A DNA stretch of 64,000 nt from Verrucomicrobiota bacterium. GTDB lineage: Bacteria > Verrucomicrobiota > Verrucomicrobiia > Limisphaerales > UBA1096. The stretch lies in the NCBI GenBank assembly GCA_030749225.1, contig JASMKO010000057.1:4724-68723 (forward strand), read 5' to 3'. Positions within the stretch are counted from its first letter, which is position 1; each line of letters begins with the position of its first letter. Shown piece by piece: positions 1-12,659 of the stretch. The position numbers and the translations under genes were made by a program. The notes under the pieces are model-generated. The model was not told the origin of the DNA, made no database searches, and worked only from the letters and a program-made list of their open reading frames with translations.

Positions 1-232
1 GGTTCTCGGCCTCCTTGTTGAGTTCAATCCACTCCTGCTGATCCTCCGGCACGTTGTCCTCGGCGAAGATGGCATCCACCGGACACTCCGGCACGCAGGC
101 ATCACAGTCGATGCAGGTGTCCGGATTGATCAGCAACCGATCCGGTGCCTCATGGAATGCCTCCACCGGGCAAACATCCACGCAACTGGTATAAACACAA
201 TCTACACACGCTCCTGTTACTACAAATGCCAT
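1..232 (-). CDS. fdxA: 7Fe-type ferredoxin (FdxA-like); 3' end runs off the window
   Basis: Not in the ORF track because there is no stop inside the window. The reverse complement from the ATG at 232-230 reads MAFVVTGACVDCVYTSCVDVCPVEAFHEAPDRLLINPDTCIDCDACVPECPVDAIFAEDNVPEDQQEWIELNKEAEN. It carries CxxCxxxxCxxxCP plus CxxCxxCxxxCP cluster motifs. Confidence 0.85.
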   Translation of the reverse strand, partial: MAFVVTGACVDCVYTSCVDVCPVEAFHEAPDRLLINPDTCIDCDACVPECPVDAIFAEDNVPEDQQEWIELNKEAEN

Positions 233-363
233 AATCTAATCGTTTTTCTTCTTTAATCTAATTAACGCCAAAGCAGGGAGTTTAGATTGCTTTGAAAACG
301 AGACAAGAAATCAGTTAAGAATGCAAACAGGTCTCATTATCACTTTACTGCTTGGTGCAACGG

Positions 364-384
364 TTAGTCGATGTAAACGAACTC
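364..384. repeat. Left copy of a 21-bp direct repeat (TTAGTCGATGTAACGAACTC-type; actual sequence ttagtcgatgtaaacgaactc). It is an orphan copy of the codons EFVYID+stop of a DUF1553 gene
   Basis: Matches 12882-12902 at 20 of 21 positions, with 19 contiguous, in the same orientation. It sits in AT-rich non-coding DNA with no ORF attached. Confidence 0.7.
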
Positions 385-738
385 AATATGTGTTATTTGA
401 TCAACATTTTCAGTGTTTTTTGAAAACACAAAACCTTAATCACACTTTTTAAGGCCATCAAAGTTGCCTGTTTGTCAGCAAATGAATTGCATCAATATTG
501 GTTCAAACGGACAGCTTTTCCATGATCTATGAAAACCAAATCCAGCTGACTTCACTGCGCAGTATTAGCAACAGCCCAAAGGCATTGCACTCTGAGCTAA
601 ATCTTGTAAACCACTTCGATTACCCCTCTAAGCGACTGGTGTTGTGAATTTTAGGAAGCCCTCATCCCTTCCCCACCTTCCCTTTTGCTGGCACACCTAT
701 GTTTCTGCTGCCATTATTTCTTTACCACGATTTCTGTA

Positions 739-789
739 ATGAAACACATACTAACAACAATCGCAGCCGTGGTTCTGGTGAGGTGTTGA
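739..789 (+). pseudogene. Head-only remnant of the ANK-lipoprotein signal peptide (MKHILTTIAAVVLVRC*)
   Basis: atgaaacacatactaacaacaatcgcagccgtggttctggtgaggtgttga is a close copy of the 'head' repeat at 2132 and 3342. The lipobox Gly is mutated to Arg and a stop follows immediately. The next 9 nt (786-794, TTGAAAGCT) match the 'tail' repeat. Confidence 0.5.
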
Positions 790-810
790 AAGCTTTAAGA
801 TAAGTCCAAA

Positions 811-1704
811 ATGAAAATAAATTGTTCAAACTGCAATCAACGCTTGGAAATACCTGAAGAACTTGCTGGGCAGACCATTGAGTGCCCTGCTTGTAATACC
901 AGCTTGGTTGTGGCATCCATCGAAGTACCTCCACCTGCAACACCTCAAATTAGGGTTACAGCACCGCAAGCAAGCGCACCACAAAAACCTCCGACAAAAA
1001 GAAAAATCGCAGCACCACCCATAGCTGCTTCCCCCAAGAAAACAAAATCACTGATTCCCAAGATAGCCATTGGTGCTATTGCAGGTGTTGCTGTCGTGGT
1101 TTTGATTATGATTTTTTCAGGTGCCTCGAAGGATGTTTCGGAATCTAACCCAACAACAGGCAGAATTGAATGGAAGCCGCAGGGATCGTCATCTCAACCA
1201 TTTGAATCAGTTGCGCAATTTGCCGAACAGAGAGCTACAGGAAAGAAGCTATCTAACGCGATAAGAAATAACGATATTGAAGAAGTAAAAACTTTATTGG
1301 CTGATGGCATAGACCTAAACCAATCCACCTACGGAGCCTTTGGGTCGCCATTGAGTCAGGCGATATCATCAGGCCAAAAAGAGATTGTTGAATTGCTTAT
1401 TACTAATGGCGCAGATGTAAATGCGAAGCGTTTTCAGAACATAACTTATTTACATGATGCTGCCTATGAACATAGAAAGGAAATCGTCGAACTTCTAATT
1501 GCCAATGGAGCGGATGTGAATGCTAAGGCCAGAGATGACATCAAAGGCACAACACCTCTGGATTCCGCCAATATGGGATTTGGATCAAAAAGAGGTAGAG
1601 TTAATTTACCTGCAAATCTCAAAAAAAATCGCACTGAAATTGCTGACATTATTCGCAAACACGGCGGCAAGACAGCTGAAGAATTAAAAGCTGAAGGGAA
1701 ATAA
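811..1704 (+). CDS. Zinc-ribbon / single-TM / ankyrin-repeat protein with the conserved ...RKHGGKTAEELKAEGK C-terminus
   Basis: The N-terminus MKINCSNCNQRLEIPEELAGQTIECPACNTSL is a CxxC...CxxC zinc ribbon. It is followed by a Pro-rich linker, a TM helix (IAIGAIAGVAVVVLIMIF) and ANK repeats (IVELLITNGADVNAK / IVELLIANGADVNAK). Confidence 0.85.
   Translation: MKINCSNCNQRLEIPEELAGQTIECPACNTSLVVASIEVPPPATPQIRVTAPQASAPQKPPTKRKIAAPPIAASPKKTKSLIPKIAIGAIAGVAVVVLIMIFSGASKDVSESNPTTGRIEWKPQGSSSQPFESVAQFAEQRATGKKLSNAIRNNDIEEVKTLLADGIDLNQSTYGAFGSPLSQAISSGQKEIVELLITNGADVNAKRFQNITYLHDAAYEHRKEIVELLIANGADVNAKARDDIKGTTPLDSANMGFGSKRGRVNLPANLKKNRTEIADIIRKHGGKTAEELKAEGK
1651..1704 (+). repeat. Junction repeat, tail-only copy (IRKHGGKTAEELKAEGK*)
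   Basis: attcgcaaacacggcggcaagacagctgaagaattaaaagctgaagggaaataa aligns with the tails at 3105-3160 and 11046-11101. Confidence 0.8.
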
Positions 1705-1712
1705 GAAAAACA

Positions 1713-2135
1713 ATGCTTATGCCTATAAAACCGAGAAACTTAATTGGGTTCTTCTTAGGCATACCGTTTATATGGATAGGATGTGACCATTTCATCAGAC
1801 CAGAAATATTTGATCTAATTGTTCCGAATTATTTGGGGTTCCCACGTTTCTGGACAATAGCTAGCGGAGTGTTTGAAATTCTTCTTGGGATAGGAATCAT
1901 GCTACCTCCTTGCCGTCGATCGACAGCTCGTTTTTTAACGTTTTTTTTGATGTGTGTTTATTTGGCTAATTTAAATATGTGGTTAAACGACATACCATTT
2001 AATGGTACAGTACTTAGTCAAAATGGTCACATTATCAGGCTCCTAGTTCAGTTAGCGCTAATTTGCATTGGTCTTTGGCTTGCTGAATTAATAGGAGGAA
2101 ATACCAGTAGAGAATTGAAAGCTGAAGGCAAATGA
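1713..2135 (+). CDS. DoxX-like small membrane protein that carries an ANK-type ...SRELKAEGK tail
   Basis: 140 aa with 4 predicted TM segments. The motif HFIRPEIFDLIVPNYLGFPRFWTIASGVFEILLGIGIMLPP resembles the DoxX-like family. The last 14 aa (IGGNTSRELKAEGK) parallel the ANK tail HGGKTGEELKAEGK. The stop overlaps the next ATG as ATGA. Confidence 0.6.
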   Translation: MLMPIKPRNLIGFFLGIPFIWIGCDHFIRPEIFDLIVPNYLGFPRFWTIASGVFEILLGIGIMLPPCRRSTARFLTFFLMCVYLANLNMWLNDIPFNGTVLSQNGHIIRLLVQLALICIGLWLAELIGGNTSRELKAEGK

Positions 2136-2215
2136 AAAACCTCCTACCCACAACAATCGCAGCCGTGGTGCTGGTGGGGTGTAGGGAGTCGCAGCAGTTG
2201 GCTCCTGCACCAGAA
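2112..2215 (+). repeat. Junction repeat, tail plus head copy
   Basis: gaattgaaagctgaaggcaaATGAaaaacctcctacccacaacaatcgcagccgtggtgctggtggggtgt...gtcgcagcagttggctcctgcaccagaa is about 90% identical by eye to 3342-3445. Confidence 0.85.
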
Positions 2216-3160
2216 GCAAAACCAGCTGAACCAGTTATCGAAGCCGCACAGTCAGCGGAGTTCTCCAAACCGTTGTCGGAAGCAAATAGTGCGCTAATGG
2301 ATGCGGCCAAGAGAGGAAACATTGAAGCAATCAAACAACACTTGACCGATGGTGCGGATGTGAACGTGAAGGGAATTGGGGGAATGGCGCCTTTGCATCG
2401 TGCGGCTCGTGAAGGACACAAGGAAGCCTCAGAACTTCTCATCACCAATGGCGCGGATGTAAACGCGAAGGATAAGAGGGGAAGGACTCCTTTGCATCGT
2501 ACGGCTCGTGAAGGACACAAGGAAGTCGCCGAACTGCTGATTGCCAAAGATGCAGATGTGAATGCGAAGAGTGAGTCCGGTTTATTTAAAGGCGAAACAC
2601 CGCTAGATGAAGCCATCAAGCGCAAACGGCCCGAAGTCGCCGACCTTCTTCGCAAACACGGAGGTAAATACAGTTCAATCGCCGTAGCTGCTAAAGCAGG
2701 AGATGTTGAAGCATTAAAGAAGTTTTTGGCTGATGGCGTGGATGCAAGTGCGATAGGCCTTTTGTCTGCGGCGGCTTCTGGGGGTCACAAGGAATTCGTA
2801 GAACTACTGATTGCCAATGGTGCGGATGTTGCTGCCAAGAATGAATATGGCAGTACTCCTTTGCATAGTGCGGCAACCAAGGAAATAGCCGAATTACTGA
2901 TCGCCAACGGTGCAGACATAAATGCGAAGATTAATGATGGATCGTCACCTTTGCTTGCCGCGGCTATAAAAGGTCACAAGGAAGTCGCTAGGCTATTGAT
3001 CGCTAATGGCGCGGATGTGAATGCAAGGAGTGAATCTGTTCTTGGAAAGGACAAGACAGCGTTAGATTGGGCCGTTGATCAAGGCTACACTGAAATCGCC
3101 GACCTCCTCCGCAAACACGGCGGCAAGACGGGTGAAGAATTGAAAGCTGAAGGGAAATGA
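2132..3160 (+). CDS. Ankyrin-repeat lipoprotein (two fused ANK modules)
   Basis: MKNLLPTTIAAVVLVGC has a lipobox (LVGC). There are multiple ANK repeats (TPLH..A...GH.E.AELLI.NGADVNAK). An internal cap LLRKHGGK lies mid-protein, and the C-terminus is LLRKHGGKTGEELKAEGK. Confidence 0.9.
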   Translation: MKNLLPTTIAAVVLVGCRESQQLAPAPEAKPAEPVIEAAQSAEFSKPLSEANSALMDAAKRGNIEAIKQHLTDGADVNVKGIGGMAPLHRAAREGHKEASELLITNGADVNAKDKRGRTPLHRTAREGHKEVAELLIAKDADVNAKSESGLFKGETPLDEAIKRKRPEVADLLRKHGGKYSSIAVAAKAGDVEALKKFLADGVDASAIGLLSAAASGGHKEFVELLIANGADVAAKNEYGSTPLHSAATKEIAELLIANGADINAKINDGSSPLLAAAIKGHKEVARLLIANGADVNARSESVLGKDKTALDWAVDQGYTEIADLLRKHGGKTGEELKAEGK

Positions 3161-3166
3161 AACACT
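3105..3166 (+). repeat. Junction repeat, tail plus the first 9 nt of the head
   Basis: ctcctccgcaaacacggcggcaagacgggtgaagaattgaaagctgaagggaaATGAaacac. Confidence 0.85.
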
Positions 3167-3333
3167 TAATACAGACACTGCTGAAATTTGGTAAACGTTC
3201 CTTCAAAGCAAATTATGGTGAAGCCGTTTCTGTGACACGCAAAATCTACAATTCTGTTGTTATGGTAACGGCAACCATACTTTTCGTCTTTATTATGTAT
3301 GGGTTGATGGACATGGTGTTTTTGTCCAAGTGA
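3157..3333 (+). CDS. Possible 58-aa single-TM protein that starts with the head ATG (below the ORF-track cutoff)
   Basis: The ATG at 3157 overlaps the upstream TGA as ATGA. Translation: MKHLIQTLLKFGKRSFKANYGEAVSVTRKIYNSVVMVTATILFVFIMYGLMDMVFLSK*. I recognise no homology. Confidence 0.3.
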   Translation: MKHLIQTLLKFGKRSFKANYGEAVSVTRKIYNSVVMVTATILFVFIMYGLMDMVFLSK

Positions 3334-3341
3334 ATTTAATA

Positions 3342-3935
3342 ATGAAACACCTCCTACTCACAACAATCGCAGCCGTGCTTCTGGTGGGGTGTGGTGAGTC
3401 GCAGCAATTGGCTCCTGCACCAGAATCAAAACCCACTGAACCAGTTCCAGAAGCTACACAACCAAACCAGTCGACAGACAAAACACCAGACATATCAATT
3501 CACGATGCTGCTTGGAACGGAAACATTGAGGCAGTTAAACAGCATATTGCTGCTGGTACGGATTTGAATGCTAAGGATGAACTTGTCGGAAGGACCCCAT
3601 TGCATTGGGCGGCAACTAATAATGTTCGTAGGGAAATCGTCGAACTGCTAATCGCCAATGGTGCCGATGTGAATGCGATGGACAGCATGGCCGGTATGAC
3701 GCCTTTACATCGTGCGACTTTGGATGGTTACAAGGAAATCGCGGAAGAGTTTATCGCCAACGGTGCGGATGTGAATGCGAAAGATAACAATAACGAAACA
3801 CCTCCTACTCACAACAATCGCAACCGTGGTGCTAGCGGGGAGGGCCAAGTATGTCGATTTACGCGAGGCAATGCCATCGCGCTCCATCTTCCCGTAGCGG
3901 TTTCAAAGTGTCGTCATCCGATACCTTCGGCTTGA
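3342..3935 (+). pseudogene. Truncated/chimeric ankyrin-repeat lipoprotein gene
   Basis: The start is intact (MKHLLLTTIAAVLLVGCGESQQLAPAPE) and about 3 ANK repeats follow. At 3792 the ANK frame runs into another head copy whose ATG is mutated to ACG (aacgaaacacctcctactcacaacaatcgcaaccgtggtgctagcgggg). From there the reading is out of frame (…DNNNETPPTHNNRNRGASGEG…) and no terminal cap is present. Confidence 0.65.
3792..3840 (+). repeat. Junction repeat, head-only copy (start codon ATG changed to ACG) embedded in the truncated ANK gene
   Basis: Aligns with 2131-2180, 3341-3390 and 11098-11148. Confidence 0.8.
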
Positions 3936-3967
3936 TCTTCTGCTGAACACCCACCAAACTTTCGGCT

Positions 3968-6523
3968 GTGATTTCAAACAATATATTCCGTCTTAGCTGC
4001 GCGCTTGTTGTCTTCAACTCCAATTGTTTGACCCAACTTTTCGGGCAAGGTTCCAAAGTGGATTATGAGCGTGCAATTGGATTAAGGGATAGGGTTCGAA
4101 ATAAAGTCTTCAAGAAGCATGTCAATCCCAAGTGGTCTCCCGATGGAGACCGTTTCTGGTATCGCAACGATTTGTCGACCGACCGACGTGAGTTTGTCTT
4201 GGTGGATACAAGCAAGGGCGAACGTCGATTGGCGTTCGACCATGTCAAGGTTGCCGCGACCTTGGCCAATGCTCTTGGTCAATCGGTAGATGCTGAGAAA
4301 CTTCCCATCGATAAGTTGGCTTTTACCGATAACCCGAATCGCTTACGCTTAATAGGAAAGGGTAATAGTTGGGAACTGGACCTTAAAACTAGCGAGTTAG
4401 GTGAATTCACTTCATCCGTTAAAGAGCTTATGTCGCTTGAGCCACCCGAAGCCATTCGCCCGTCCGGCAGTAACGGGCAAGAAACCTATGTCACATTCCG
4501 CAATGTAACGGATCAGATCATTCGCTTGGTTTGGGTGTCAGGCGATGGCGGACGGCATCTTTACGAGGTGATTGGCGATAAATCAGAATTCAAACAACAC
4601 ACTTATGCAAATCATGTGTGGCTCATTGAAACTGACGAAGGCAAACGGCTCGGCATCTATGAGGCGAAACCCGGAAACCCAACCGTGATTATCGATGGCC
4701 GTACGAAGGCCTTGAAAAAGAGTACAGTCAAGTCCGATGAAGACGACGAGCAACCTGAACACGAAAAATACAGTTCGCCCCGAGGCTTGCGTTCGCCTGA
4801 TGGCATATGGGAGGTGTCGATCAAAGAACATAACATTTGGATTCGGGGCAAGGACGGTCAGCATTTTCAACTCAGCAAAGATGGCACTGATGAGGATGGT
4901 TATCGCAGAGGTGATGTCCACTGGTCACCTGACTCGAAACGGTTGACAGCTTTGCGAACGCTCAAGGAAGAGGAGCATCTAGTTAATGTTGTTGAGTCGT
5001 CCCCAAAGGATCAATTGCAACCTAAGTTGCATTCGTTCCGATATCTTAAACCGGGCGATCGAGTGGCAAAACAACGGCCCAAGTTGTTTAATGTTGGGGA
5101 AAGACAAGAAATCCAGATTGAACAGGGTCTATTTGACAATCCGTGGCGTATCAATCGCATTCGCTGGGCCAAGAACTCACGGGAGTTTACCTTTGAGTAC
5201 AACGAGCGAGGACATCAGGTGCTTAGAATCATTTCCGTAAACTCGCGGAATGGAAAAACCAAGCCGGTCGTTGAAGAAACCAGCAACACGTTTGTCGATT
5301 ATTCCCAGAAACATTATGAATACTGGCTTGGCGATGGTGAAGAATTGATTTGGATGAGTGAACGTAACGGATGGAATCATCTCTACCTTTTCGACACGCG
5401 AGAAAAGAAACTGAAAAACGCCATCACACAAGGCGATTGGGTGGTAAGAAAGGTTGAGCATATCGACGAAGCCAGACGACAAATATGGTTTCAGGCAATG
5501 GGAATTTATCCGGAACAGGATCCCTATTACATACATCACTGCCGTGTTAATCTCGATGGCACCGGCTTGACTGTTTTAACCGAAGGAAATGGAACGCACG
5601 AATTACAGTGGTCTCCGAGTCGACGGTTCTTTGTCGATAAATGGTCACGAGTGGATCAACCACCTGTGCACGAGCTGCGTTCAGCTGATGGGGAATTCAT
5701 TTGCGAACTGGAACGAGCTGATTGTGTGCAACTATATAGAACCGGGTGGAAATTGCCCGAGCGTTTTGTAACCAAAGGCCGAGATGGGGAAACTGACATC
5801 TTTGGAGTAATATGGCGTCCGACTAATTTTGATCCGACGAAACGCTATCCGGTGATAGAAAACATCTATGCTGGGCCACATAGCTTCTATGTGCCAAAAG
5901 CATTCCGTGATTACTACGGTCAACAGCGAATGGCCGAGCTGGGATTCATTCTAGTCCAAATTGATGGGATGGGAACCAACTGGCGTTCGAAAAAGTTTCA
6001 CGATGTTTGCTGGCAAAACATTAAGGATGCCGGCTTTCCGGATCGAATATTATGGATTAGAGCTGCGGCCAAAGAATACCCGGAAATGGATTTGTCTATC
6101 GTCGGTATTTACGGTGGTTCAGCAGGAGGTCAAAACACAATGAGCGGTTTGCTGCATCATGGGGACTTTTATAAAGTCGGCGTTTCAGACTGCGGTTGTC
6201 ATGACAACCGTATGGATAAAATCTGGTGGAATGAAGCATGGATGGGTTGGCCAATCGGCCCGGAATACTCTGAAAACAGTAATGTCACTCATGCCCACAA
6301 ACTAAAGGGTAAGTTATTGTTGATTGTGGGTGAACTTGATCGGAATGTCGATCCTGCAAGCACTATACAAGTCGTTGATGCTTTGATAAAAGCGGACAAG
6401 GATTTTGACTTTCTTCTTATCCCAGGAACAGGTCACGGCGCAGCCGGAACTCCCTACGGTCGTCGCAGGCAAATGGATTATTTTGTAGAACACATCCTCA
6501 AAATGAAACCTAGATGGGAGTGA
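3968..6523 (+). CDS. S9-family serine peptidase (dipeptidyl-peptidase IV / prolyl oligopeptidase-like)
   Basis: 851 aa. The N-terminal region is beta-propeller-like. The C-terminal alpha/beta-hydrolase part carries the nucleophile motif IYGGSAGGQNT, then GELDRNVD and GTGHG, consistent with a Ser-Asp-His triad order. The N-terminus is hydrophobic and signal-like. The start (GTG at 3968) is uncertain. Confidence 0.88.
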   Translation: MISNNIFRLSCALVVFNSNCLTQLFGQGSKVDYERAIGLRDRVRNKVFKKHVNPKWSPDGDRFWYRNDLSTDRREFVLVDTSKGERRLAFDHVKVAATLANALGQSVDAEKLPIDKLAFTDNPNRLRLIGKGNSWELDLKTSELGEFTSSVKELMSLEPPEAIRPSGSNGQETYVTFRNVTDQIIRLVWVSGDGGRHLYEVIGDKSEFKQHTYANHVWLIETDEGKRLGIYEAKPGNPTVIIDGRTKALKKSTVKSDEDDEQPEHEKYSSPRGLRSPDGIWEVSIKEHNIWIRGKDGQHFQLSKDGTDEDGYRRGDVHWSPDSKRLTALRTLKEEEHLVNVVESSPKDQLQPKLHSFRYLKPGDRVAKQRPKLFNVGERQEIQIEQGLFDNPWRINRIRWAKNSREFTFEYNERGHQVLRIISVNSRNGKTKPVVEETSNTFVDYSQKHYEYWLGDGEELIWMSERNGWNHLYLFDTREKKLKNAITQGDWVVRKVEHIDEARRQIWFQAMGIYPEQDPYYIHHCRVNLDGTGLTVLTEGNGTHELQWSPSRRFFVDKWSRVDQPPVHELRSADGEFICELERADCVQLYRTGWKLPERFVTKGRDGETDIFGVIWRPTNFDPTKRYPVIENIYAGPHSFYVPKAFRDYYGQQRMAELGFILVQIDGMGTNWRSKKFHDVCWQNIKDAGFPDRILWIRAAAKEYPEMDLSIVGIYGGSAGGQNTMSGLLHHGDFYKVGVSDCGCHDNRMDKIWWNEAWMGWPIGPEYSENSNVTHAHKLKGKLLLIVGELDRNVDPASTIQVVDALIKADKDFDFLLIPGTGHGAAGTPYGRRRQMDYFVEHILKMKPRWE

Positions 6524-6560
6524 TATCTTCACTGGCCGCTCTAAACCACCCCGTGGCCAC

Positions 6561-6663
6561 CTACTTCCTCTGCGAACTCGGTGGCAAGTCCAATGGGGAA
6601 CTGGAAGCTGAGGGCAAATGAGACATCTTCCTACTCACAACAATCACCGCCGTGCTTCTGATG
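6561..6663 (+). repeat. Junction repeat, degenerate tail plus head copy downstream of the peptidase gene
   Basis: ctacttcctctgcgaactcggtggcaagtccaatggggaactggaagctgagggcaaATGAgacatcttcctactcacaacaatcaccgccgtgcttctgatgg. The tail reads ...LCELGGKSNGELEAEGK*. The head has a 1-nt insertion, so it is frameshifted. Confidence 0.75.
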
Positions 6664-6815
6664 GATCCAAATTGGCCGCCTATGGCATCAATTGCCCGCT
6701 GTCCCCAGGGTGCAGACCGCCGGTTTCAGAAAGGATTGGGTTTCGTTTTCGGTGATCCCGACGGCGGTATTCACAGCAAAAAATTGCGGGATCTCTCAAT
6801 GAGATGAATTGAAGC

Positions 6816-9530
6816 TTACAGTGATGATTGATTAAGGGGATCGCTTTCAAACCATCTTGTCCACCATTCTGGTTTATAGATGATACGAAAGATGCTGGTG
6901 TATTCATCGGTCCATAATGGCGAATCTTCTTGCGCACTTAGTTTTGTGCGCGGATAATTATAATCCTCGATTTGCCGGATAAATTTTTCATTGTCCGATA
7001 GCAATATCCAGGTGCAGTCATAAATCCAATCCTCCCCAACACTCTCACCGTTATCACTGTTCACCACAACCATCATCATGTTCATCTCCATGGCCAGACG
7101 TCGCACCACGGTTTTGAGATCCAGATATTTGTTGGAAACATGGATCGCTATGACGCCTTGTGGATGGGTGTGTTCTCTGTAAAGCCCCATTGATTCCTTA
7201 GTCAATAGATGCACCGGTATAGAGTCGCTGCTAAAAGCATCCAACACCAGCAAGTCAAAGTTTTGTTTATTGCCTTTATTAAGCTCTTGTTCCATCGACA
7301 ACCGGGCGTCACCTAAGACAATTTCCACTTCTGCTCCGCGGATTTGGGCATTGGTTAGAAATGTGAATTGACTTTGATCTTCCGATGACAGGTTTATCAC
7401 TTGTGGATTGATGTCATAGAAGCGATAGCTGTCACCAACCTGCGCATAGCCTGCAACCGTTCCAACACCTAGCCCTATCACACCCACGCGTTTTCTCTCG
7501 GCTTGGGTATGTTGCATCGACAATCCCACGCCGCTTTCTGGCGTGTAGTATGTGGTAGTTCGATTGCAAATTTCCAGCGCCTCATACTGAATGCCATGTG
7601 TAATCCGACCGCTCCATAGTGCTAGATAGGGTTCATCGGAGTCGTCGAAATATCGGGTTATCATAAGTGTGCCATAAAAATTTCTGTCCAAATGTACGGC
7701 ATCCTGCTGTGTCTTGATACCCTGAATGGTTAAGCCCATGCCCAGAGTCCCCAATGCCGGCACAAGTAGCAGAAGATAGCCGGCATATCGAAGCCCCCAT
7801 CCTTCTTGGTGTTTCGTGCTAAACCAAAAAATGCAATTAAGAGGAAGGGTTACGGCCACGGCGATCAACAATAATCGTATCCATTGTTCGCCTGGGAGAT
7901 TGCTAATCTTGAGCCATTCAGAAATGTTAATACCAATAGTAAAATCCACCATCTTCTCCATAGTCCAAAGCGAAACCAGTACTATCAGCACCTGTGCACT
8001 CAAAATAGAGAAAATAATCATCCTAAAAGATCTGCAGCATGTCGCGAGGGAACCGGAATATGACCTCAATAAACTTAACCCCCGCCATTTCACGGCAGTT
8101 GAATCCTCAGAATTGAGTCCCTGCAACGTCAAGACCAGTAATCCAACTGCCCAAAGTGAAATGTGATACTCCCAGTAACCATGGAACAGCATTGGAGCCA
8201 GTAAAGCCACGAAAAAGCCACCCAAGGCGCCGCCAGCAGAAATAGTCAAATAATACATGGTGAGTTGGGCCGGTTTCGGGCGAAGTCTGTACAACTCACC
8301 GTGGCATATCATGCAACTCAAGAATAGCGCACCGCAGAAAACCAATATTTGCCCAACAATGTGGAAATCTACCCCTCGAAACATCACCCATAACACGCCT
8401 GCCCAAAACAGTATCAACAGCGGTATGTAGATTTCTCGAATATACCAGCGTGGGCTATGGAAACTAATTATGAAGGTAACTAGGTATAGGGCCAACGGCA
8501 GCATCCAGAGGAAGGGCACCACTGCCATATCCTGACACAACTTGTTGGTGGTGCCCATGAGTATGGCAGTGCCGCAGGCCGGCAAAGCGAGCCAGAAACA
8601 CAATATCACCAACCTTCGCAACCGGCTTTCATTCTCTTCTAGTATGGTTTTCTCTCTTTTGGCTTCGTCATTATCCAGATTTGGCACAGATCGCAATGAC
8701 CATGCCAGATAGCCGCATACCAGCACGTAAAACACCATCCCAATCGACCACCAGTTGATCTGCGCAGTACGCGTCGTCCACGGCTCCACCAGCAATGGAA
8801 ATCCGAGTAGTGCCAGAAGTGAGCCAACATTGGAAAGCGCATAGAGTCGGTAAGGTGAGCATCCTGGATTAGCCTTCGCAAACCAAGCCTGTACCAGTGG
8901 GCTAGTGGCCGAGAGAACGAGGTATGGCAGGCCAATACTTTCAGTCAGTAGCAGCAAAATTTGTACTGTTGGAGATTCGTTGCCTCTCGGTTTGAGGCTT
9001 TCGTTTGGTGTTATGGGTAGCGTGATGGTGGCTAATAAAAGTAATACTCCATGTATAATCACCTGTTTGCGTATCGGTAAAAAACGATTCACGAGGTGAG
9101 CATACGCATAACCGACTAGTAACAGAGATTGGAAGAACAGCAGGCAGGTTGTCCACACACTGGGCGCACCGCCGAACCAAGGCAGTATGTACTTGCCGGT
9201 CAATGGTTGGACAAAAAACAGCAGGAGCGCACCCATAAAAATTGTCACGGCAAAGACAGGTAGACTCGGGGGCACGGGTTGAAGTCTCGTTTGAGTCACT
9301 CTCAAAGAGAACAGGCCACCAATTAATGAAAAAAACAATGTAAAAGCCTTGATTATGAGTATAATCGATGAGGGCAAGCTTGTAGGCAAATCATCTTCTC
9401 CGCAGAGGACGGACTGCGCAACAAACCTCACATCATTGATTATAATGTGCCTCCGTTCTTTTGCCAGACCATCCAATACTATCCAGAGTTTGAGAGTGCC
9501 TTGAGCCGTAAGAAAGAAGCTGTACTCCAC
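6816..9530 (-). CDS. Polytopic membrane protein fused to a spermidine-synthase-like (class I methyltransferase-fold) domain
   Basis: About 600 aa of TM-rich sequence includes VQPLTGKYILPWFGGAPSVWTTCLLFFQ. The C-terminal part has GVIGLGVGTVAGYA (a SAM/dcSAM-binding Gly-rich loop) and DLLVLDAFSSDSIPVHLLTKE, as in spermidine-synthase-like proteins. The true start is probably internal to the track ORF. Confidence 0.75.
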   Translation of the reverse strand: MEYSFFLTAQGTLKLWIVLDGLAKERRHIIINDVRFVAQSVLCGEDDLPTSLPSSIILIIKAFTLFFSLIGGLFSLRVTQTRLQPVPPSLPVFAVTIFMGALLLFFVQPLTGKYILPWFGGAPSVWTTCLLFFQSLLLVGYAYAHLVNRFLPIRKQVIIHGVLLLLATITLPITPNESLKPRGNESPTVQILLLLTESIGLPYLVLSATSPLVQAWFAKANPGCSPYRLYALSNVGSLLALLGFPLLVEPWTTRTAQINWWSIGMVFYVLVCGYLAWSLRSVPNLDNDEAKREKTILEENESRLRRLVILCFWLALPACGTAILMGTTNKLCQDMAVVPFLWMLPLALYLVTFIISFHSPRWYIREIYIPLLILFWAGVLWVMFRGVDFHIVGQILVFCGALFLSCMICHGELYRLRPKPAQLTMYYLTISAGGALGGFFVALLAPMLFHGYWEYHISLWAVGLLVLTLQGLNSEDSTAVKWRGLSLLRSYSGSLATCCRSFRMIIFSILSAQVLIVLVSLWTMEKMVDFTIGINISEWLKISNLPGEQWIRLLLIAVAVTLPLNCIFWFSTKHQEGWGLRYAGYLLLLVPALGTLGMGLTIQGIKTQQDAVHLDRNFYGTLMITRYFDDSDEPYLALWSGRITHGIQYEALEICNRTTTYYTPESGVGLSMQHTQAERKRVGVIGLGVGTVAGYAQVGDSYRFYDINPQVINLSSEDQSQFTFLTNAQIRGAEVEIVLGDARLSMEQELNKGNKQNFDLLVLDAFSSDSIPVHLLTKESMGLYREHTHPQGVIAIHVSNKYLDLKTVVRRLAMEMNMMMVVVNSDNGESVGEDWIYDCTWILLSDNEKFIRQIEDYNYPRTKLSAQEDSPLWTDEYTSIFRIIYKPEWWTRWFESDPLNQSSL

Positions 9531-9679
9531 AGTATAAAGAAACTAAGCGACACAAACGCCAAGCAAGCAAAACCGCTCGTCCAAAGGCGATAACATCTTG
9601 TAAATGGCCAAGTGCAATGTTTTACAGCAATAAAAAACGCCTTGAAAGTAGCCACCGTTCCGATGACTGTTGCCTTGCT

Positions 9680-11101
9680 ATGAAGTCCTTACTGCTCGCA
9701 ACTAACCTAGCGGTGTTGTTGGTGGGATGTGCCCCAAGTGTAGATATTTGGGAAGCTGCGTGGATGGGAGACGTCGAAGCCGTCAAATCGCAATTGGCTG
9801 CTGGCGCGGATTTGAACAAAAAGGATAGTTTTGGAAGAACTCCTTTGTATTATTCGGCCTTGGAAGGTCACACGCAAGTTGCTGAACTGCTTATCTCCAA
9901 AGGTGCAGATGTGAATGCGAAGACTAATACTGGTAGAACTCCTTTGCATTATGGGGCTCGTGCAGGTCATAAGGAAATCATCGAACTACTTATCTCCAAG
10001 GGTGCGCTTGTGAATGCAAAGGTTGTTGATGGCAAAACACCCCTGGATTGGGCAGAAAAGTTATATGAATGGGAATTACCCGAAGTAAAAGCAGCCAAAA
10101 AAGAAGCTGCCGACCTTCTGCGCAAACATGGTGGCAAAACGGGTGAAAAATACTTAATTCATTTAGCAGCAAGAGAAGGTAATATCAAGGCTGCCAAACA
10201 ATATCTGCTTGATGGTGTGAATGCGAAAGATGGGATTGGTAGGACTCCTTTGCATCTGTCGGCTATGGGTGGTCACCATGAAGTCGGCGAACTGCTTATA
10301 GCAAATGGCGCGGATGTGAATGCAAAGGATAATAAGGCAGCAACTCCTTTGCATTATGTGCTAAGGGGAACGAAAGTTGCCGAACTGCTTATAACAAACG
10401 GCGCGGATGTGAATGCAAGGGATAATAAGGGAGCGACTCCTTTGCATTTTACGGCTACTTATGGCCGTAAGGAAGTCGCCGAACTACTCATTGCCAATGG
10501 TGCGGATATCAATCAGAAGGATGCAGATGGCTGGACTCCTTTGCATTTTGCAGCGAATTGGGGTCACAAGGCAATCGTTGAACTACTCATTGCCAATGGT
10601 GCGGGGATAAAAGTAAGTTCTAGTGAACCCAAAGGCAATACACCGCTAGGTATTGCCATCCAGAATAGCTATCCCGAAATCGTCGAGCTTCTCATCGACA
10701 AAGGTACGGATGTGAATGCGAAAGATGTTGGGGGAGGGACTCTTTTGGGCTGGGCGGCTCGTTTTGGTCACGCGAAAGTTGCTGAACTGCTTATCGCCAA
10801 AGGTGCAGATGTGAATGCGAAGGATAAGTATGGAAGGACTCCTTTGCATCGTGTGACTACGTACGGAGGCCGCCGTCGAACGCGGCTTGGTAAGACTTAT
10901 TTAGCTCTGGAAGATTACGTGGAAATTACTGAACTACTTGTTGCCAAAGGTGCGGATGTGAATGCAATCATTGCGTCTGGTCGATACCAAGGAAAGACGT
11001 TGTTAGATCGAGCCGGTGAACAAAAGCAACCCGAAATTGCCGCACTCCTCCGCAAGCACGGCGGCAAGACAGGTGAAGAATTGAAAGCTGAAGGGAAATA
11101 A
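9680..11101 (+). CDS. Ankyrin-repeat lipoprotein (two or more fused ANK modules)
   Basis: I reset the start to ATG 9680 (MKSLLLATNLAVLLVGC, lipobox). There are more than 10 ANK repeats. An internal cap LLRKHGGKTGEK lies mid-protein, and the C-terminus is LLRKHGGKTGEELKAEGK. Confidence 0.9.
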   Translation: MKSLLLATNLAVLLVGCAPSVDIWEAAWMGDVEAVKSQLAAGADLNKKDSFGRTPLYYSALEGHTQVAELLISKGADVNAKTNTGRTPLHYGARAGHKEIIELLISKGALVNAKVVDGKTPLDWAEKLYEWELPEVKAAKKEAADLLRKHGGKTGEKYLIHLAAREGNIKAAKQYLLDGVNAKDGIGRTPLHLSAMGGHHEVGELLIANGADVNAKDNKAATPLHYVLRGTKVAELLITNGADVNARDNKGATPLHFTATYGRKEVAELLIANGADINQKDADGWTPLHFAANWGHKAIVELLIANGAGIKVSSSEPKGNTPLGIAIQNSYPEIVELLIDKGTDVNAKDVGGGTLLGWAARFGHAKVAELLIAKGADVNAKDKYGRTPLHRVTTYGGRRRTRLGKTYLALEDYVEITELLVAKGADVNAIIASGRYQGKTLLDRAGEQKQPEIAALLRKHGGKTGEELKAEGK

Positions 11102-11148
11102 AACACCTCCTACTCACAACAATCGCAGCCGTGCCGGTGGTGGGGTGT
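11046..11148 (+). repeat. Junction repeat, tail plus head copy (head start codon lost: ATG changed to ATA)
   Basis: ctcctccgcaagcacggcggcaagacaggtgaagaattgaaagctgaagggaaATAAaacacctcctactcacaacaatcgcagccgtgccggtggtggggtgt. Confidence 0.85.
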
Positions 11149-11340
11149 AATTCAACTCGCACTGAACTAAGCCATCTCCCGGGTATCTCAATTCATCAAG
11201 CTGCCACTAGAGGGGACATTAAAGCCGCTAAACAGCACTTGATGGCCGGGGTAAGCCCTGATTAAAAGCCAAAAGCGGATGGGTACCATTACACTACGCT
11301 TCTGGTGGGCGCCATTATGACATCGTTAAACCATATGGTG
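11098..11340 (+). pseudogene. Decayed ankyrin-repeat lipoprotein gene
   Basis: The start codon is mutated. The frame reads IKHLLLTTIAAVPVVGCNSTRTELSHLPGISIHQAATRGDIKAAKQHLMAGVSPD* and stops at 11265. A shifted frame then reads ...GWVPLHYASGGRHYDIVK..., which is an ANK remnant. Confidence 0.65.
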
Positions 11341-11554
11341 GTAGAGAAGGCCCAAGGCATCCAGAGAAGGCCGCCGCAACAGTAAAGACCAGCCGACAAG
11401 TAAATGGGTCTCTTCACGGCTTGGTTGACTCTAACACCCCGCAGTCCTACCCCTCAAAATGAAATAAGAAGGCCGCACAGGGCAGAGCGACCTCGGCCAT
11501 TCTTTTGAAGAAAAATAATTTGATAAATAATAAATAAGACATATAATTGCCGCC

Positions 11555-12010
11555 ATGAATGCGACAGCCGGATTAGTTCTAGCCATCCTCATCTTTGGGG
11601 CGGCGATGTTCATGCTGGGGCAGATTATCCCCGGCATCTTGGTGTTGACCAAGGTCTTGGCGGTGTTTCTGGTCGTCGTCCTTGGCATTGTGGTTCCCGT
11701 GCAGGCGGCTAGCCTGAAACTGGCGATCCGCGCAATCTTCAGGGAGGACGTGCCGTTCAAGGCCTCCTACGTCTTGATGGCAATCCTGCTCATCGTTTAT
11801 GTCGTGATCATGATGGTGGCCTTTAATACGCCCATCATGGCCTACGCGGGGCAGTTTATCGTCGGATCTTTTCTCTTGGGCAAATTCGTCGAGATGGATG
11901 GGGAATCGATCGGCATCCTGAAAGGTGCGTTGGTCTCGCTGCTGACCACGGCCATCACCTACGGAATCTGGTTCGTAGCCGGCACCACGATCATGGGGAT
12001 GCTGAGATAG
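11555..12010 (+). CDS. Hypothetical small integral membrane protein (about 4 TM)
   Basis: 151 aa and strongly hydrophobic (LVLAILIFGAAMFMLGQIIPGILVLTKVLAVFLVVVLGIVV...). The antisense ORF 11579-12064 is Arg/Asp/His-rich and looks non-coding. Confidence 0.5.
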   Translation: MNATAGLVLAILIFGAAMFMLGQIIPGILVLTKVLAVFLVVVLGIVVPVQAASLKLAIRAIFREDVPFKASYVLMAILLIVYVVIMMVAFNTPIMAYAGQFIVGSFLLGKFVEMDGESIGILKGALVSLLTTAITYGIWFVAGTTIMGMLR

Positions 12011-12167
12011 AGGCTGCTGACTCCTAGAGATCGTCGCAGCAAGTGTTGTGAGGGTCGGCGGCATCGCAACGATCCGGCTCGAGCGGCTTGGTTTTCTTCT
12101 GCCGCATCAGCCGCTCGTACTCCTCCCGCTTGACGGTGAACTGGCAGTGGCGTTTCATTGGGTTGAT

Positions 12168-12659
12168 ATGTCAGAAGAACCATTGCAATCCACGCAGGCT
12201 ATCCCTGACCTCGTTACCAAGGCTATCCCTGACGACGAGCGCCTATGGGTCCCGCAGGCCGACAAGATTTGGTTCCGGCCACTGATTTTGAACACCACCA
12301 ATGGAGAGTGGGTTAACCTATTGCGAATTGCCAAAGGCGGTGTGATGAATCGCCACCGCCACCCCGCGCCGGTCTACGGCTACGTGCTAAAGGGCGAGTG
12401 GCGCTACCTCGAGCATGACTGGGTGGCCAAGCCGGGTACGTTCGTCTTCGAGCCGCCCGGCGAGATTCACACGCTTGTGGTCGACGAGGAAGTGGAGGAA
12501 ATGATCACGCTCTTTCATGTTTTCGGCGCGTTGGTGTACTATGACGAGGACGACAACCTCATCCAGCATGACGATGTGCACACAAAGATCGAGATGTGCC
12601 GTGCGCACTTCGAGCAGGTTGGCCTCGGTGCTGATTACGTCAAGCAGTTCATCCGCTAA
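12168..12659 (+). CDS. Cupin-fold protein, 2,4'-dihydroxyacetophenone-dioxygenase-like family
   Basis: I reset the start to ATG 12168 (MSEEPLQ...). Supporting motifs are LWVPQADKIWFRPLILNTTNGEWVNLLRIAKGGVMNRHRHPAPVYGYVLKGEWRYLEHDW and GEIHTLVV, which match the cupin metal-ligand pattern. Confidence 0.7.
   Translation: MSEEPLQSTQAIPDLVTKAIPDDERLWVPQADKIWFRPLILNTTNGEWVNLLRIAKGGVMNRHRHPAPVYGYVLKGEWRYLEHDWVAKPGTFVFEPPGEIHTLVVDEEVEEMITLFHVFGALVYYDEDDNLIQHDDVHTKIEMCRAHFEQVGLGADYVKQFIR

Follow-up and report, generated by a model that had tools for sequence, protein, structure and literature searches.

The stretch of DNA analysed here (the window; 64,000 nucleotides (nt) of Verrucomicrobiota bacterium assembly GCA_030749225.1, contig JASMKO010000057.1) contains near its left end a run of ankyrin-repeat (ANK) genes and, between two of them, a gene for a small DoxX-like membrane protein that ends in the same peptide as the ANK proteins. 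All window genes and remnants located below lie on the plus strand. The DoxX-like open reading frame (ORF; 1713..2135) encodes 140 amino acids (aa) with four transmembrane helices and starts 8 nt (GAAAAACA) past the stop codon of ANK297, a 297-aa protein with an N-terminal zinc ribbon, a transmembrane segment and ankyrin repeats (811..1704; Pfam Ank E = 1e-15). Its TGA overlaps the ATG of the following gene (ATGA, 2132), which encodes a 342-aa ANK lipoprotein, ANK342 (2132..3160). ANK297 ends in RKHGGKTAEELKAEGK followed by a stop, with the coding DNA GAATTAAAAGCTGAAGGGAAATAA at 1681-1704 inside the left tail copy (1654..1704). The DoxX-like protein ends in SRELKAEGK, encoded at its very end by the right tail copy GAATTGAAAGCTGAAGGCAAATGA (2112..2135), which comprises seven codons plus the stop. 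The first 51 nt of ANK342 (2132-2182; 17 codons, MKNLLPTTIAAVVLVGC) are the head of the ANK family, a lipoprotein signal peptide with lipobox (here LVGC), and the gene closes with a tail of its own (3110-3160). A complete tail-head junction consists of the last approximately 50 nt of one gene, the ATGA stop/start overlap and the first approximately 51 nt, encoding the signal peptide, of the next.

The two 24-nt tail copies at 1681-1704 and 2112-2135 are identical at 21/24 positions, and the copy on the DoxX side agrees with the ANK342 tail (3137-3160) at 23/24. With up to 3 mismatches allowed, the tail 24-mer had four matches in the window (1681, 2112, 3137 and 11078) and none in 100 shuffles; the head 20-mer had six (754, 2150, 3360, 3811, 6637 and 11116), again compared to none in the shuffles. 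The first-pass annotation of this DNA, made from the letters alone, had described the tail copies, the 8-nt gap, the 21/24 repeat and the full head behind it, and was accurate in all these statements. The Ank profile did not match ORF 1713-2135 at all, and its neighbours score at E = 1e-15 to 1e-83. Likewise, the family head MKHLLLTTIAAVLLVGC is not found at the N-terminus of the DoxX-like protein, which starts MLMPIKPRNLIGFF, and the family tail GAAYTRAAAGCTGAAGGNAAATRA (ELKAEGK and stop) is matched at 2112-2135 with a single mismatch. Since the tail is present and both the head and the ANK repeats are absent, the DoxX-like protein carries the tail without being a member of the ANK family.

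Taken alone, the 140-aa protein gave sub-threshold matches to the DoxX_3, MauE and DoxX profiles (17-20 bits, E = 1e-3 to 8e-3); the Pfam curated cut-offs for the DoxX-clan profiles compared (PF07681 DoxX, PF13564 DoxX_2, PF13781 DoxX_3 and PF07291 MauE) are 23.6-27 bits. At the level of its family, PF07681 was matched by 23/29 members at E<=0.01 (best E = 1.8e-6), and some database orthologues bear PF07681 in their precomputed annotation. An AlphaFold2 model computed with the family alignment (mean predicted local distance difference test score, pLDDT, of 88) has four transmembrane helices at residues 7-28, 44-63, 65-91 and 103-123; the last helix stops at residue 123 and the final 10 residues have a pLDDT of about 50. 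A Foldseek search of the Protein Data Bank (PDB) with this model returned no match at E<=1e-3, with the DoxX-family protein NACHO/TMEM35A (9h9e_B) at rank 3 (TM-score 0.53/0.56, prob 0.93, E = 0.6). The label DoxX-like is therefore weak for the window protein by itself and acceptable with the support of its family. Like DoxX/MauE-clan proteins, the family has a corresponding size, four transmembrane helices and weak-to-moderate profile matches throughout; unlike them, it has an invariant ANLNMW.N..P motif of its own (ANLNMWLNDIPFNG), together with invariant G, H, P and W positions, and the window protein stays below the Pfam thresholds. Homologues comprised 144 database matches and 223 stretches confirmed by tblastn in a species-representative genome collection, and the family was found in marine Verrucomicrobiales, Phycisphaerae/Planctomycetota, SAR202 Chloroflexota and MGII (Poseidoniales) archaea. 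A protein family with the ANLNMWLNDIPFNG motif is thus spread across domains among pelagic plankton (loci L016-L095, from the genome collection), and in several verrucomicrobial clades a conserved Zn_ribbon_21 gene follows the DoxX-like gene.

The C-termini of 120 database homologues and of the genome loci were compared, all comparison DNA coming from metagenome contigs or metagenome-assembled genomes. The closest homologues, 74-96% identical to the window protein, close with RELK[ASPT]E[GEFV]K or a degenerate version, with the variants AEEK, AVGK and PEFK and the premature ends KGLKA-stop and RVLKS-stop. In locus L016, GAA has become TAA so that the tail ends at KGLKA, and GGGAAATGA plus the head still lie downstream; in L018 (74% identity) the tail ends at RVLKS and is followed by AAGGGAATTGA. 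All other orthologues end otherwise (GKSNKRLK, KKTKSMA, GKTPRGQEEKAN, VISNED and others, each followed by a stop), and none of them has a head downstream. Three other verrucomicrobial clades are tail-less, as are the planctomycete, SAR202 and MGII archaeal homologues, and in a neighbour-joining tree from an alignment of only 118 aa the tail-bearing sequences are nested among the tail-less verrucomicrobial clades. The first-pass annotation had taken the DoxX-like C-terminus for an acquired ANK tail and had pointed to orthologues ending without ELKAEGK as the place to look; such orthologues make up the family outside the closest clade. Judged from these alignments, the tail on the DoxX-like protein is a derived state, acquired from the ANK family.

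The acquired part is shorter than the approximately 14 codons initially attributed to the ANK family. The DoxX-like protein ends in IGGNTSRELKAEGK and the ANK proteins in HGGKT[GA]EELKAEGK, but the G[RK]KT just 5' of the tail belongs to the DoxX-like family itself, and upstream of the 24-mer the two window copies agree at only 10/21 positions (31/45 overall). For both reasons, the ANK-derived part of the DoxX-like end demonstrably amounts, on sequence evidence, to the last 7-8 codons plus stop only. At the other end, the leader of the window gene (AGAAAAACAATGCTT before ATGCC) is similar to the native 5' leader of tail-less orthologues such as that in L010 (AGGAAAAAATCTCTT before ATGCC), and the DoxX-derived DNA is therefore placed at 1705..2111, comprising the leader GAAAAACA(ATGCTT) and codons 1-133. 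This segment measures 407 nt at 37.3% GC in a genome of about 60% GC, in agreement with the roughly 410-bp foreign segment between the tails that had been proposed.

Six other loci were aligned with the window and three further loci were inspected, giving 10 contexts in total. At least 10 contigs contain the unit of tail, leader, DoxX, tail and head, and their flanks are unrelated. Conserved in this unit are a tail fragment, the leader GAAAAACA(ATGCTT), the DoxX core, the tail and a complete or truncated head, and the second tail fragment lies directly upstream of the DoxX-like gene in every context. The left neighbours are the zinc-ribbon gene ANK297 in the window, an ANK gene collapsed to its head plus tail end (L004/L005), ANK remnants (L006, L018), an intact ANK 3' end at the contig start (L218), a gene for an 883-aa cytochrome-c protein (L016) and one for a head-bearing lipoprotein of 444-467 aa (L017, L217, L219). 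The right neighbours are different in 10/10 cases: ANK342, a truncated ANK gene followed by a CBM9/LTD protein, ANK120, GFO_IDH, a 368-aa protein, a sulfatase, a 620-aa protein, a truncated ANK gene, a HEAT-repeat protein and an MFS transporter. In L006, L016 and L017 the tail is retained although the head downstream is truncated and no gene follows. In a blastp synteny matrix the tail-clade loci have only the DoxX ORF in common, whereas 5-16 flanking ORFs are common to members of each of the three tail-less clades at similar core divergence (core identity 75-94% compared to 71-93% in the tail clade).

A filled and an empty site were found behind the same upstream gene, a comparison that the first-pass annotation had proposed for related strains. 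L149 and L016 align at 94.9% identity for 2,629 nt, a stretch that ends with the tail. In the empty L149 the tail leads directly into the head through ATGA, with no DoxX gene (GGGAAATGA joined to AATACCTCCTACTCACAACAATCGCAGCC), whereas in the filled L016 GGGAAATAA is followed by GAAAAACA, DoxX, the tail and a head fragment, so that 431 nt of leader, DoxX and tail lie in between. The same pair (L149, minus strand, reverse-complement 5078-7666; L016, 3305-5956) records how a tail can be gained: the upstream gene of L016 stops at a TAA just before an in-frame solo tail, and the corresponding codon in L149 is AAA, with the result that the 862-aa cytochrome-c-domain protein of L149 reads into the tail and ends in FKKETGEELKAEGK (ETGEELKAEGK). 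Stop-codon loss is thus directly observed as a route by which a non-ANK protein gains the tail.

The DoxX core evolves at a ratio of nonsynonymous to synonymous substitutions (dN/dS) of 0.15-0.3, with dS between clade members of 0.1-1.0. The former, indicating purifying selection, implies that the DoxX-like gene is functional, and the latter that the fusion is old. An insertion that fused the tail onto DoxX had been proposed for this locus; the fusion stands, but not as a local event, because it predates the whole clade (dS up to about 1), and the unit therefore reached the locus already tailed. The charge distribution (positive-inside rule) points to cytoplasmic N- and C-termini for the DoxX-like protein, so that ELKAEGK would be cytoplasmic there and exported on the ANK lipoproteins; this difference in location argues against a common protein-level role.

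Compositionally, the window has 57.8% GC overall, and the ANK genes and their cargo form a low-GC island (240..12000, borders approximate) of 44-49% GC per kb with about 55-63% on both sides; DNA just upstream of the window, available from contig L001 (1-1700), has 61.9%. In nine tail-clade loci, DoxX has 38-40% GC and the flanks mostly 52-60% (shorter flanks 38-48%). Native tail-less DoxX copies lie only 0.5-8 points below their own loci, and one in a genome of 52% GC has 51%. The GC contrast of the DoxX segment suggests that the unit was transferred from a low-GC verrucomicrobial lineage. Independent assemblies reproduce both island borders, the left one in L001/L002 and the right one in L220-L222, which argues that the island is not a chimera, and neither tRNA genes nor an integrase were found at these borders.

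This island of about 12 kb holds all ANK genes of the window, the DoxX unit, a DPP-IV/S9 peptidase gene and a gene for a 904-aa membrane protein. Upstream of the array lies a solo head remnant (MKHILTTIAAVVLVRC and stop; 739..789). Homologues of ANK297 were seen in L211, where the protein has 507 aa and its tail runs straight into a head gene without DoxX, and in L097. Behind ANK342, a putative hydrophobic ORF of 58 aa (3157..3333) starts with the first 9 nt of the head (ATGAAACAC) in ATGA overlap with the ANK342 tail. Its position, with a tail before it and the next full head behind, makes it a candidate for a second non-ANK insert; the sole homologue among the fetched loci is an identical copy in L001, and the ORF may not be a real gene. 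Positions 3342..3840 hold a truncated ANK gene, with its head at 3342-3392, and the head fragment (3795-3840) to which it is fused. The DPP-IV/S9 peptidase gene (3968..6523) has junction debris on both sides, namely this head fragment and a solo tail-head junction without ANK body (LGGKSNGELEAEGK and stop, then MRHLPTHNN; 6577..6664), and looks like further cargo. Further to the right follow a 494-aa ANK lipoprotein (9617..11101, tail at 11051-11101) and a head (11102-11148) with a truncated ANK remnant (11102..11265). No intrinsic-terminator-like site was found in 200-4200, compared to 4.2 expected from shuffles, which is consistent with one transcript for the run of zinc-ribbon ANK gene, DoxX, ANK gene, small ORF and ANK gene; the DoxX-like gene would then be co-transcribed with the array. 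A promoter scan gave no signal above chance.

A tail-pattern scan of a metagenome collection (loci L096-L215) showed that the DoxX-like protein, singled out by the first-pass annotation as a tailed non-ANK cargo, is indeed one but is not unique. Among 144 sampled tails, 69 were on ANK ORFs, 58 were solo stubs or short remnants, and approximately 6-8 (about 5%) closed genuine non-ANK proteins, among them an Exo_endo_phos lipoprotein (L115), the cytochrome-c protein of L149, a sulfatase C-terminus (L139), a 207-aa lipoprotein (L143), a 93-aa transmembrane protein (L153) and a fragment (L157). Per-position conservation is 55-99% in head and tail; the ANK bodies have about 65-80% nt identity. Only one IMG/VR contig contained the tail pattern when a viral origin was checked. 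Full-text literature searches found no matching description of an ANK head/tail lipoprotein family in Verrucomicrobia.

In several of these loci (L100, L101, L105, L122, L134, L166, L174 and L096) the tail, often as a 6-codon stub, stands directly before prepilin-type N_methyl/DUF1559 genes with the ATGA overlap, N_methyl being the commonest non-ANK neighbour of a junction (15/150). Some proteins without detected ANK repeats (L017 533-1936, L018 9774-10712, L115 and L143) likewise have the head MKHLLLTTIAAVLLVGC as their signal peptide, and the head is therefore shared beyond the ANK family. Two other recurrent sequences, cgccgaaagctccctgcctaat and gctagctagtgtcttggagagcgatc, follow truncated heads (L147, L198; L114, L121, L185), which suggests additional repeat families interrupting heads.

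The boundaries, neighbours and structure of the junction were also examined. Breakpoints of junction fragments are scattered on both the left and the right side, and a peak at +22 derives from a 3-nt indel variant of the head. No integrase or transposase was present among the island ORFs scanned, and no recombinase among the 25 most frequent Pfam families of 150 junction-adjoining proteins, where single occurrences are possible. Rfam gave no match on window 1-12,500 at E<=1. A 9-bp inverted repeat (CACGGCGGC in the tail, GCAGCCGTG in the head) surrounds the stop/start overlap in window 11041-11156 and in junctions generally. In folding comparisons with shuffles, one complete junction reached z = -3.4 and four others behaved like shuffles, and RNAalifold over 44 junctions yielded neither a consensus structure nor compensatory changes in the inverted repeat. 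We accordingly rejected an RNA or single-stranded DNA structure of the junction, as four of five junctions fold like shuffles with no consensus and no covariation; nor does the junction have the terminal inverted repeats or palindromic structure of miniature inverted-repeat transposable elements or Rickettsia palindromic elements (RPEs). A test for nucleotide-level selection on the tail was uninformative, because the consensus codons of the ANK body are equally homogenised (synonymous-codon homogeneity 0.66-0.98, compared to 0.72-0.98 in the tail). With scattered breakpoints, no recombinase and no fold, homologous recombination together with illegitimate joins and deletions would be the simplest account.

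The explanation we regard as probable is that a functional DoxX-like gene was joined to an ANK tail-head junction and was then moved as a block by ordinary homologous recombination, with ELKAEGK as a passenger. In this account, the four-helix DoxX-like gene would have arisen in low-GC marine Verrucomicrobiales, and in one sub-lineage its 3' end would have been joined to the junction, either through a crossover at short similarity or through stop-codon loss and read-through into an adjacent junction remnant. The unit of tail, 8-nt leader, DoxX core, tail and head may then have been carried as a block to new sites, including those in much higher-GC genomes, where homologous recombination between dispersed tails would insert or delete the 431-nt block and leave the direct repeat behind. 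Recombination and deletion inside heads and tails would reshuffle the neighbours, crossovers in the head swapping the downstream DNA, and the tail on the DoxX-like protein would have no required function.

Several observations weigh against this account. Bootstrap support for the tail clade in the neighbour-joining tree is weak on the short alignment (27%; 46% with the tail-less L019/P0019 lineage counted in). L019 ends in SQQETEAK-stop, an end of the same length as the tailed one with a 14/24 nt match to the tail, and either the ancestral end may have resembled the tail already or the L019 tail may have decayed. The low GC content of the segment could partly reflect membrane-protein composition. 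L016 and L149 differ beyond the head too and do not represent a clean single event; junction repeats of about 100 nt could yield occasional chimeric joins; and no recombination event was directly observed among these loci. As a separate matter, an ancestral context for L019 shared with the Laminin_G/Ion_trans group was considered and rejected, the shared ORFs being only distant sulfatase paralogues.

An unlikely alternative regards the tail as an expression signal: its last approximately 24 nt would be the translation-initiation region of the next exported-protein gene, coupled through ATGA, and an ANK gene with this leader would have been placed against the DoxX 3' end, the unit not being mobile as such. 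The purine-rich GAAGGG just 5' of the ATG would fit such a role, yet the spacing from GAAGG to ATG is only about 3 nt. The tail, often a 6-codon stub, does stand directly before heads and N_methyl genes, always with the ATGA overlap, and solo tails are kept where the ANK body is lost; however, it also persists in L006, L016 and L017 with a truncated head and no gene following, and its synonymous-site conservation is not clearly above that of consensus ANK-body codons. Furthermore, the left-side tail fragment, the lost synteny and the GC contrast are left unexplained.

A broader proposal, which we likewise consider improbable, is that pelagic Verrucomicrobiota exchange genes as cassettes bounded by the tail-head junction. 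Any junction-flanked gene (the DoxX-like gene, the DPP-IV peptidase gene, small ORFs, ANK genes) could in this case be excised, moved from site to site and among genomes that differ in GC, and stacked in low-GC islands via an unrecognised recombinase or a specially efficient homology-driven route. Its stricter form, in which the junction is the site of a dedicated integron-like or other site-specific recombinase that handles single-gene cassettes and builds the island, appears quite unlikely. Short promoterless ORFs on the same strand, separated by a repeated junction of about 100 nt, a 431-nt unit between direct repeats with its filled and empty pair, cargo of foreign composition in a low-GC island and the absence of terminator-like sites in 200-4200 would all suit it. 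Yet no integrase or transposase is found in the island and none recurs among the 150 junction neighbours, a recombinase acting in trans from elsewhere being possible, and junction fragments end at many positions. The one junction folding at z = -3.4 with its 9-bp inverted repeat around ATGA stands against other tested junctions that fold like shuffles and 44 junctions without a consensus or compensatory changes.

The same balance emerges from a comparison with integron gene cassettes. These also are small promoterless single-ORF units in one orientation with a repeated boundary sequence between them, and share with the junction system unrelated cargo, filled and empty sites and build-up in a compositionally distinct array. 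In contrast, an IntI-type integrase was not found here among the island ORFs or the commonest junction-neighbour families, there is no attC-type folded inverted repeat, the boundary position is not fixed, and the boundary repeat is coding, comprising an ORF end and the next signal peptide. An integron-like mechanism is not supported. The cassette-like capture seen by the first-pass annotation thus holds for the anatomy and fails for the machinery, with no recurrent integrase, attC-like structure or fixed boundary.

That the differing contexts of the DoxX unit are an assembly artefact, with chimeric assembler joins at the repeated junction, is very improbable. In its favour, the roughly 100-nt junction is repeated abundantly and all comparison loci come from short-read contigs, but the window arrangement recurs at 99.9-100% identity in contigs L001 and L002 from two other samples and the right side of the island in L220-L222, L017, L217 and L219 independently have the same left neighbour, and in many contexts unique DNA follows a truncated head or tail, a pattern not expected from a join within a shared repeat. 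Least probable, and largely refuted, is that no capture occurred and that an ELK-type K/E-rich tail was the ancestral end of the DoxX-like family, resembling that of the ANK family by convergence or shared DoxX-family ancestry: every family member has a short charged C-terminus, G[RK]KT is the family's own, one outgroup ends in KRLK-stop with CGATTGAAATAG, resembling GAATTGAAA, and L019 matches in length and at 14/24 nt, but the tail agrees at 23/24 nt with ANK tails from its own genome and runs on into the 51-nt head, every context has a second tail fragment abutting the 5' side of the gene, and three well-sampled verrucomicrobial clades and all non-verrucomicrobial homologues lack the tail.

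Segmentally recombining surface-protein families with conserved ends include Anaplasma msp2/p44, Borrelia vls, Neisseria pilS and the Mycoplasma mgp repeats. Like msp2/vls-type families, the ANK family has conserved 5' and 3' ends, a variable middle, many truncated copies and recombination within the ends; unlike them, it is not known to have an expression site or clonal switching, it belongs to a free-living pelagic bacterium, and the outcome is the tagging and relocation of an unrelated gene. In RPEs, reportedly described by Ogata et al. in 2000, repeated DNA likewise gives one short peptide without evident peptide function to unrelated proteins; however, RPEs are palindromic and inserted internally in frame, whereas the junction described here is non-palindromic and terminal and contributes a C-terminal end only. 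The junction system appears to belong neither to the segmental surface-protein families nor to RPE-type repeats. Further comparison with msp2/vls-type systems is offered by PMC2169797 and PMC4023411. In Rhs and polymorphic toxins (PMC2935791, PMC3482391), recombination exchanges the 3' end of a gene, and orphaned pieces build up alongside. Replacement of 3' ends and adjacent orphan fragments occur here too, but the Rhs core is conserved and the tip varies, whereas here the tip is conserved and the body differs.

Altogether, the interpretation given by the first-pass annotation is partly supported, being right in outline with the corrections described. The locus illustrates cleanly how, in nature, a repeat that is abundant within one gene family rewrites the ends of unrelated genes and relocates them. 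ELKAEGK closes proteins as different as a membrane protein with a cytoplasmic tail, a cytochrome-c protein, a phosphatase-like lipoprotein and a sulfatase. For annotation, no function can be read from a C-terminus shared in this way, and the many short "ORFs" with this ending should be treated as junction debris. The wider junction system merits more attention than the single DoxX fusion. The ANK-lipoprotein family itself, apparently undescribed, combines a conserved head and tail with very active turnover in low-GC islands of uncultured pelagic Verrucomicrobiota. If the junction is a real cassette boundary, it would represent a new way of assembling flexible genomic islands, and if the cassette-exchange reading were true, an integron-like function would have been built from protein-coding repeats.

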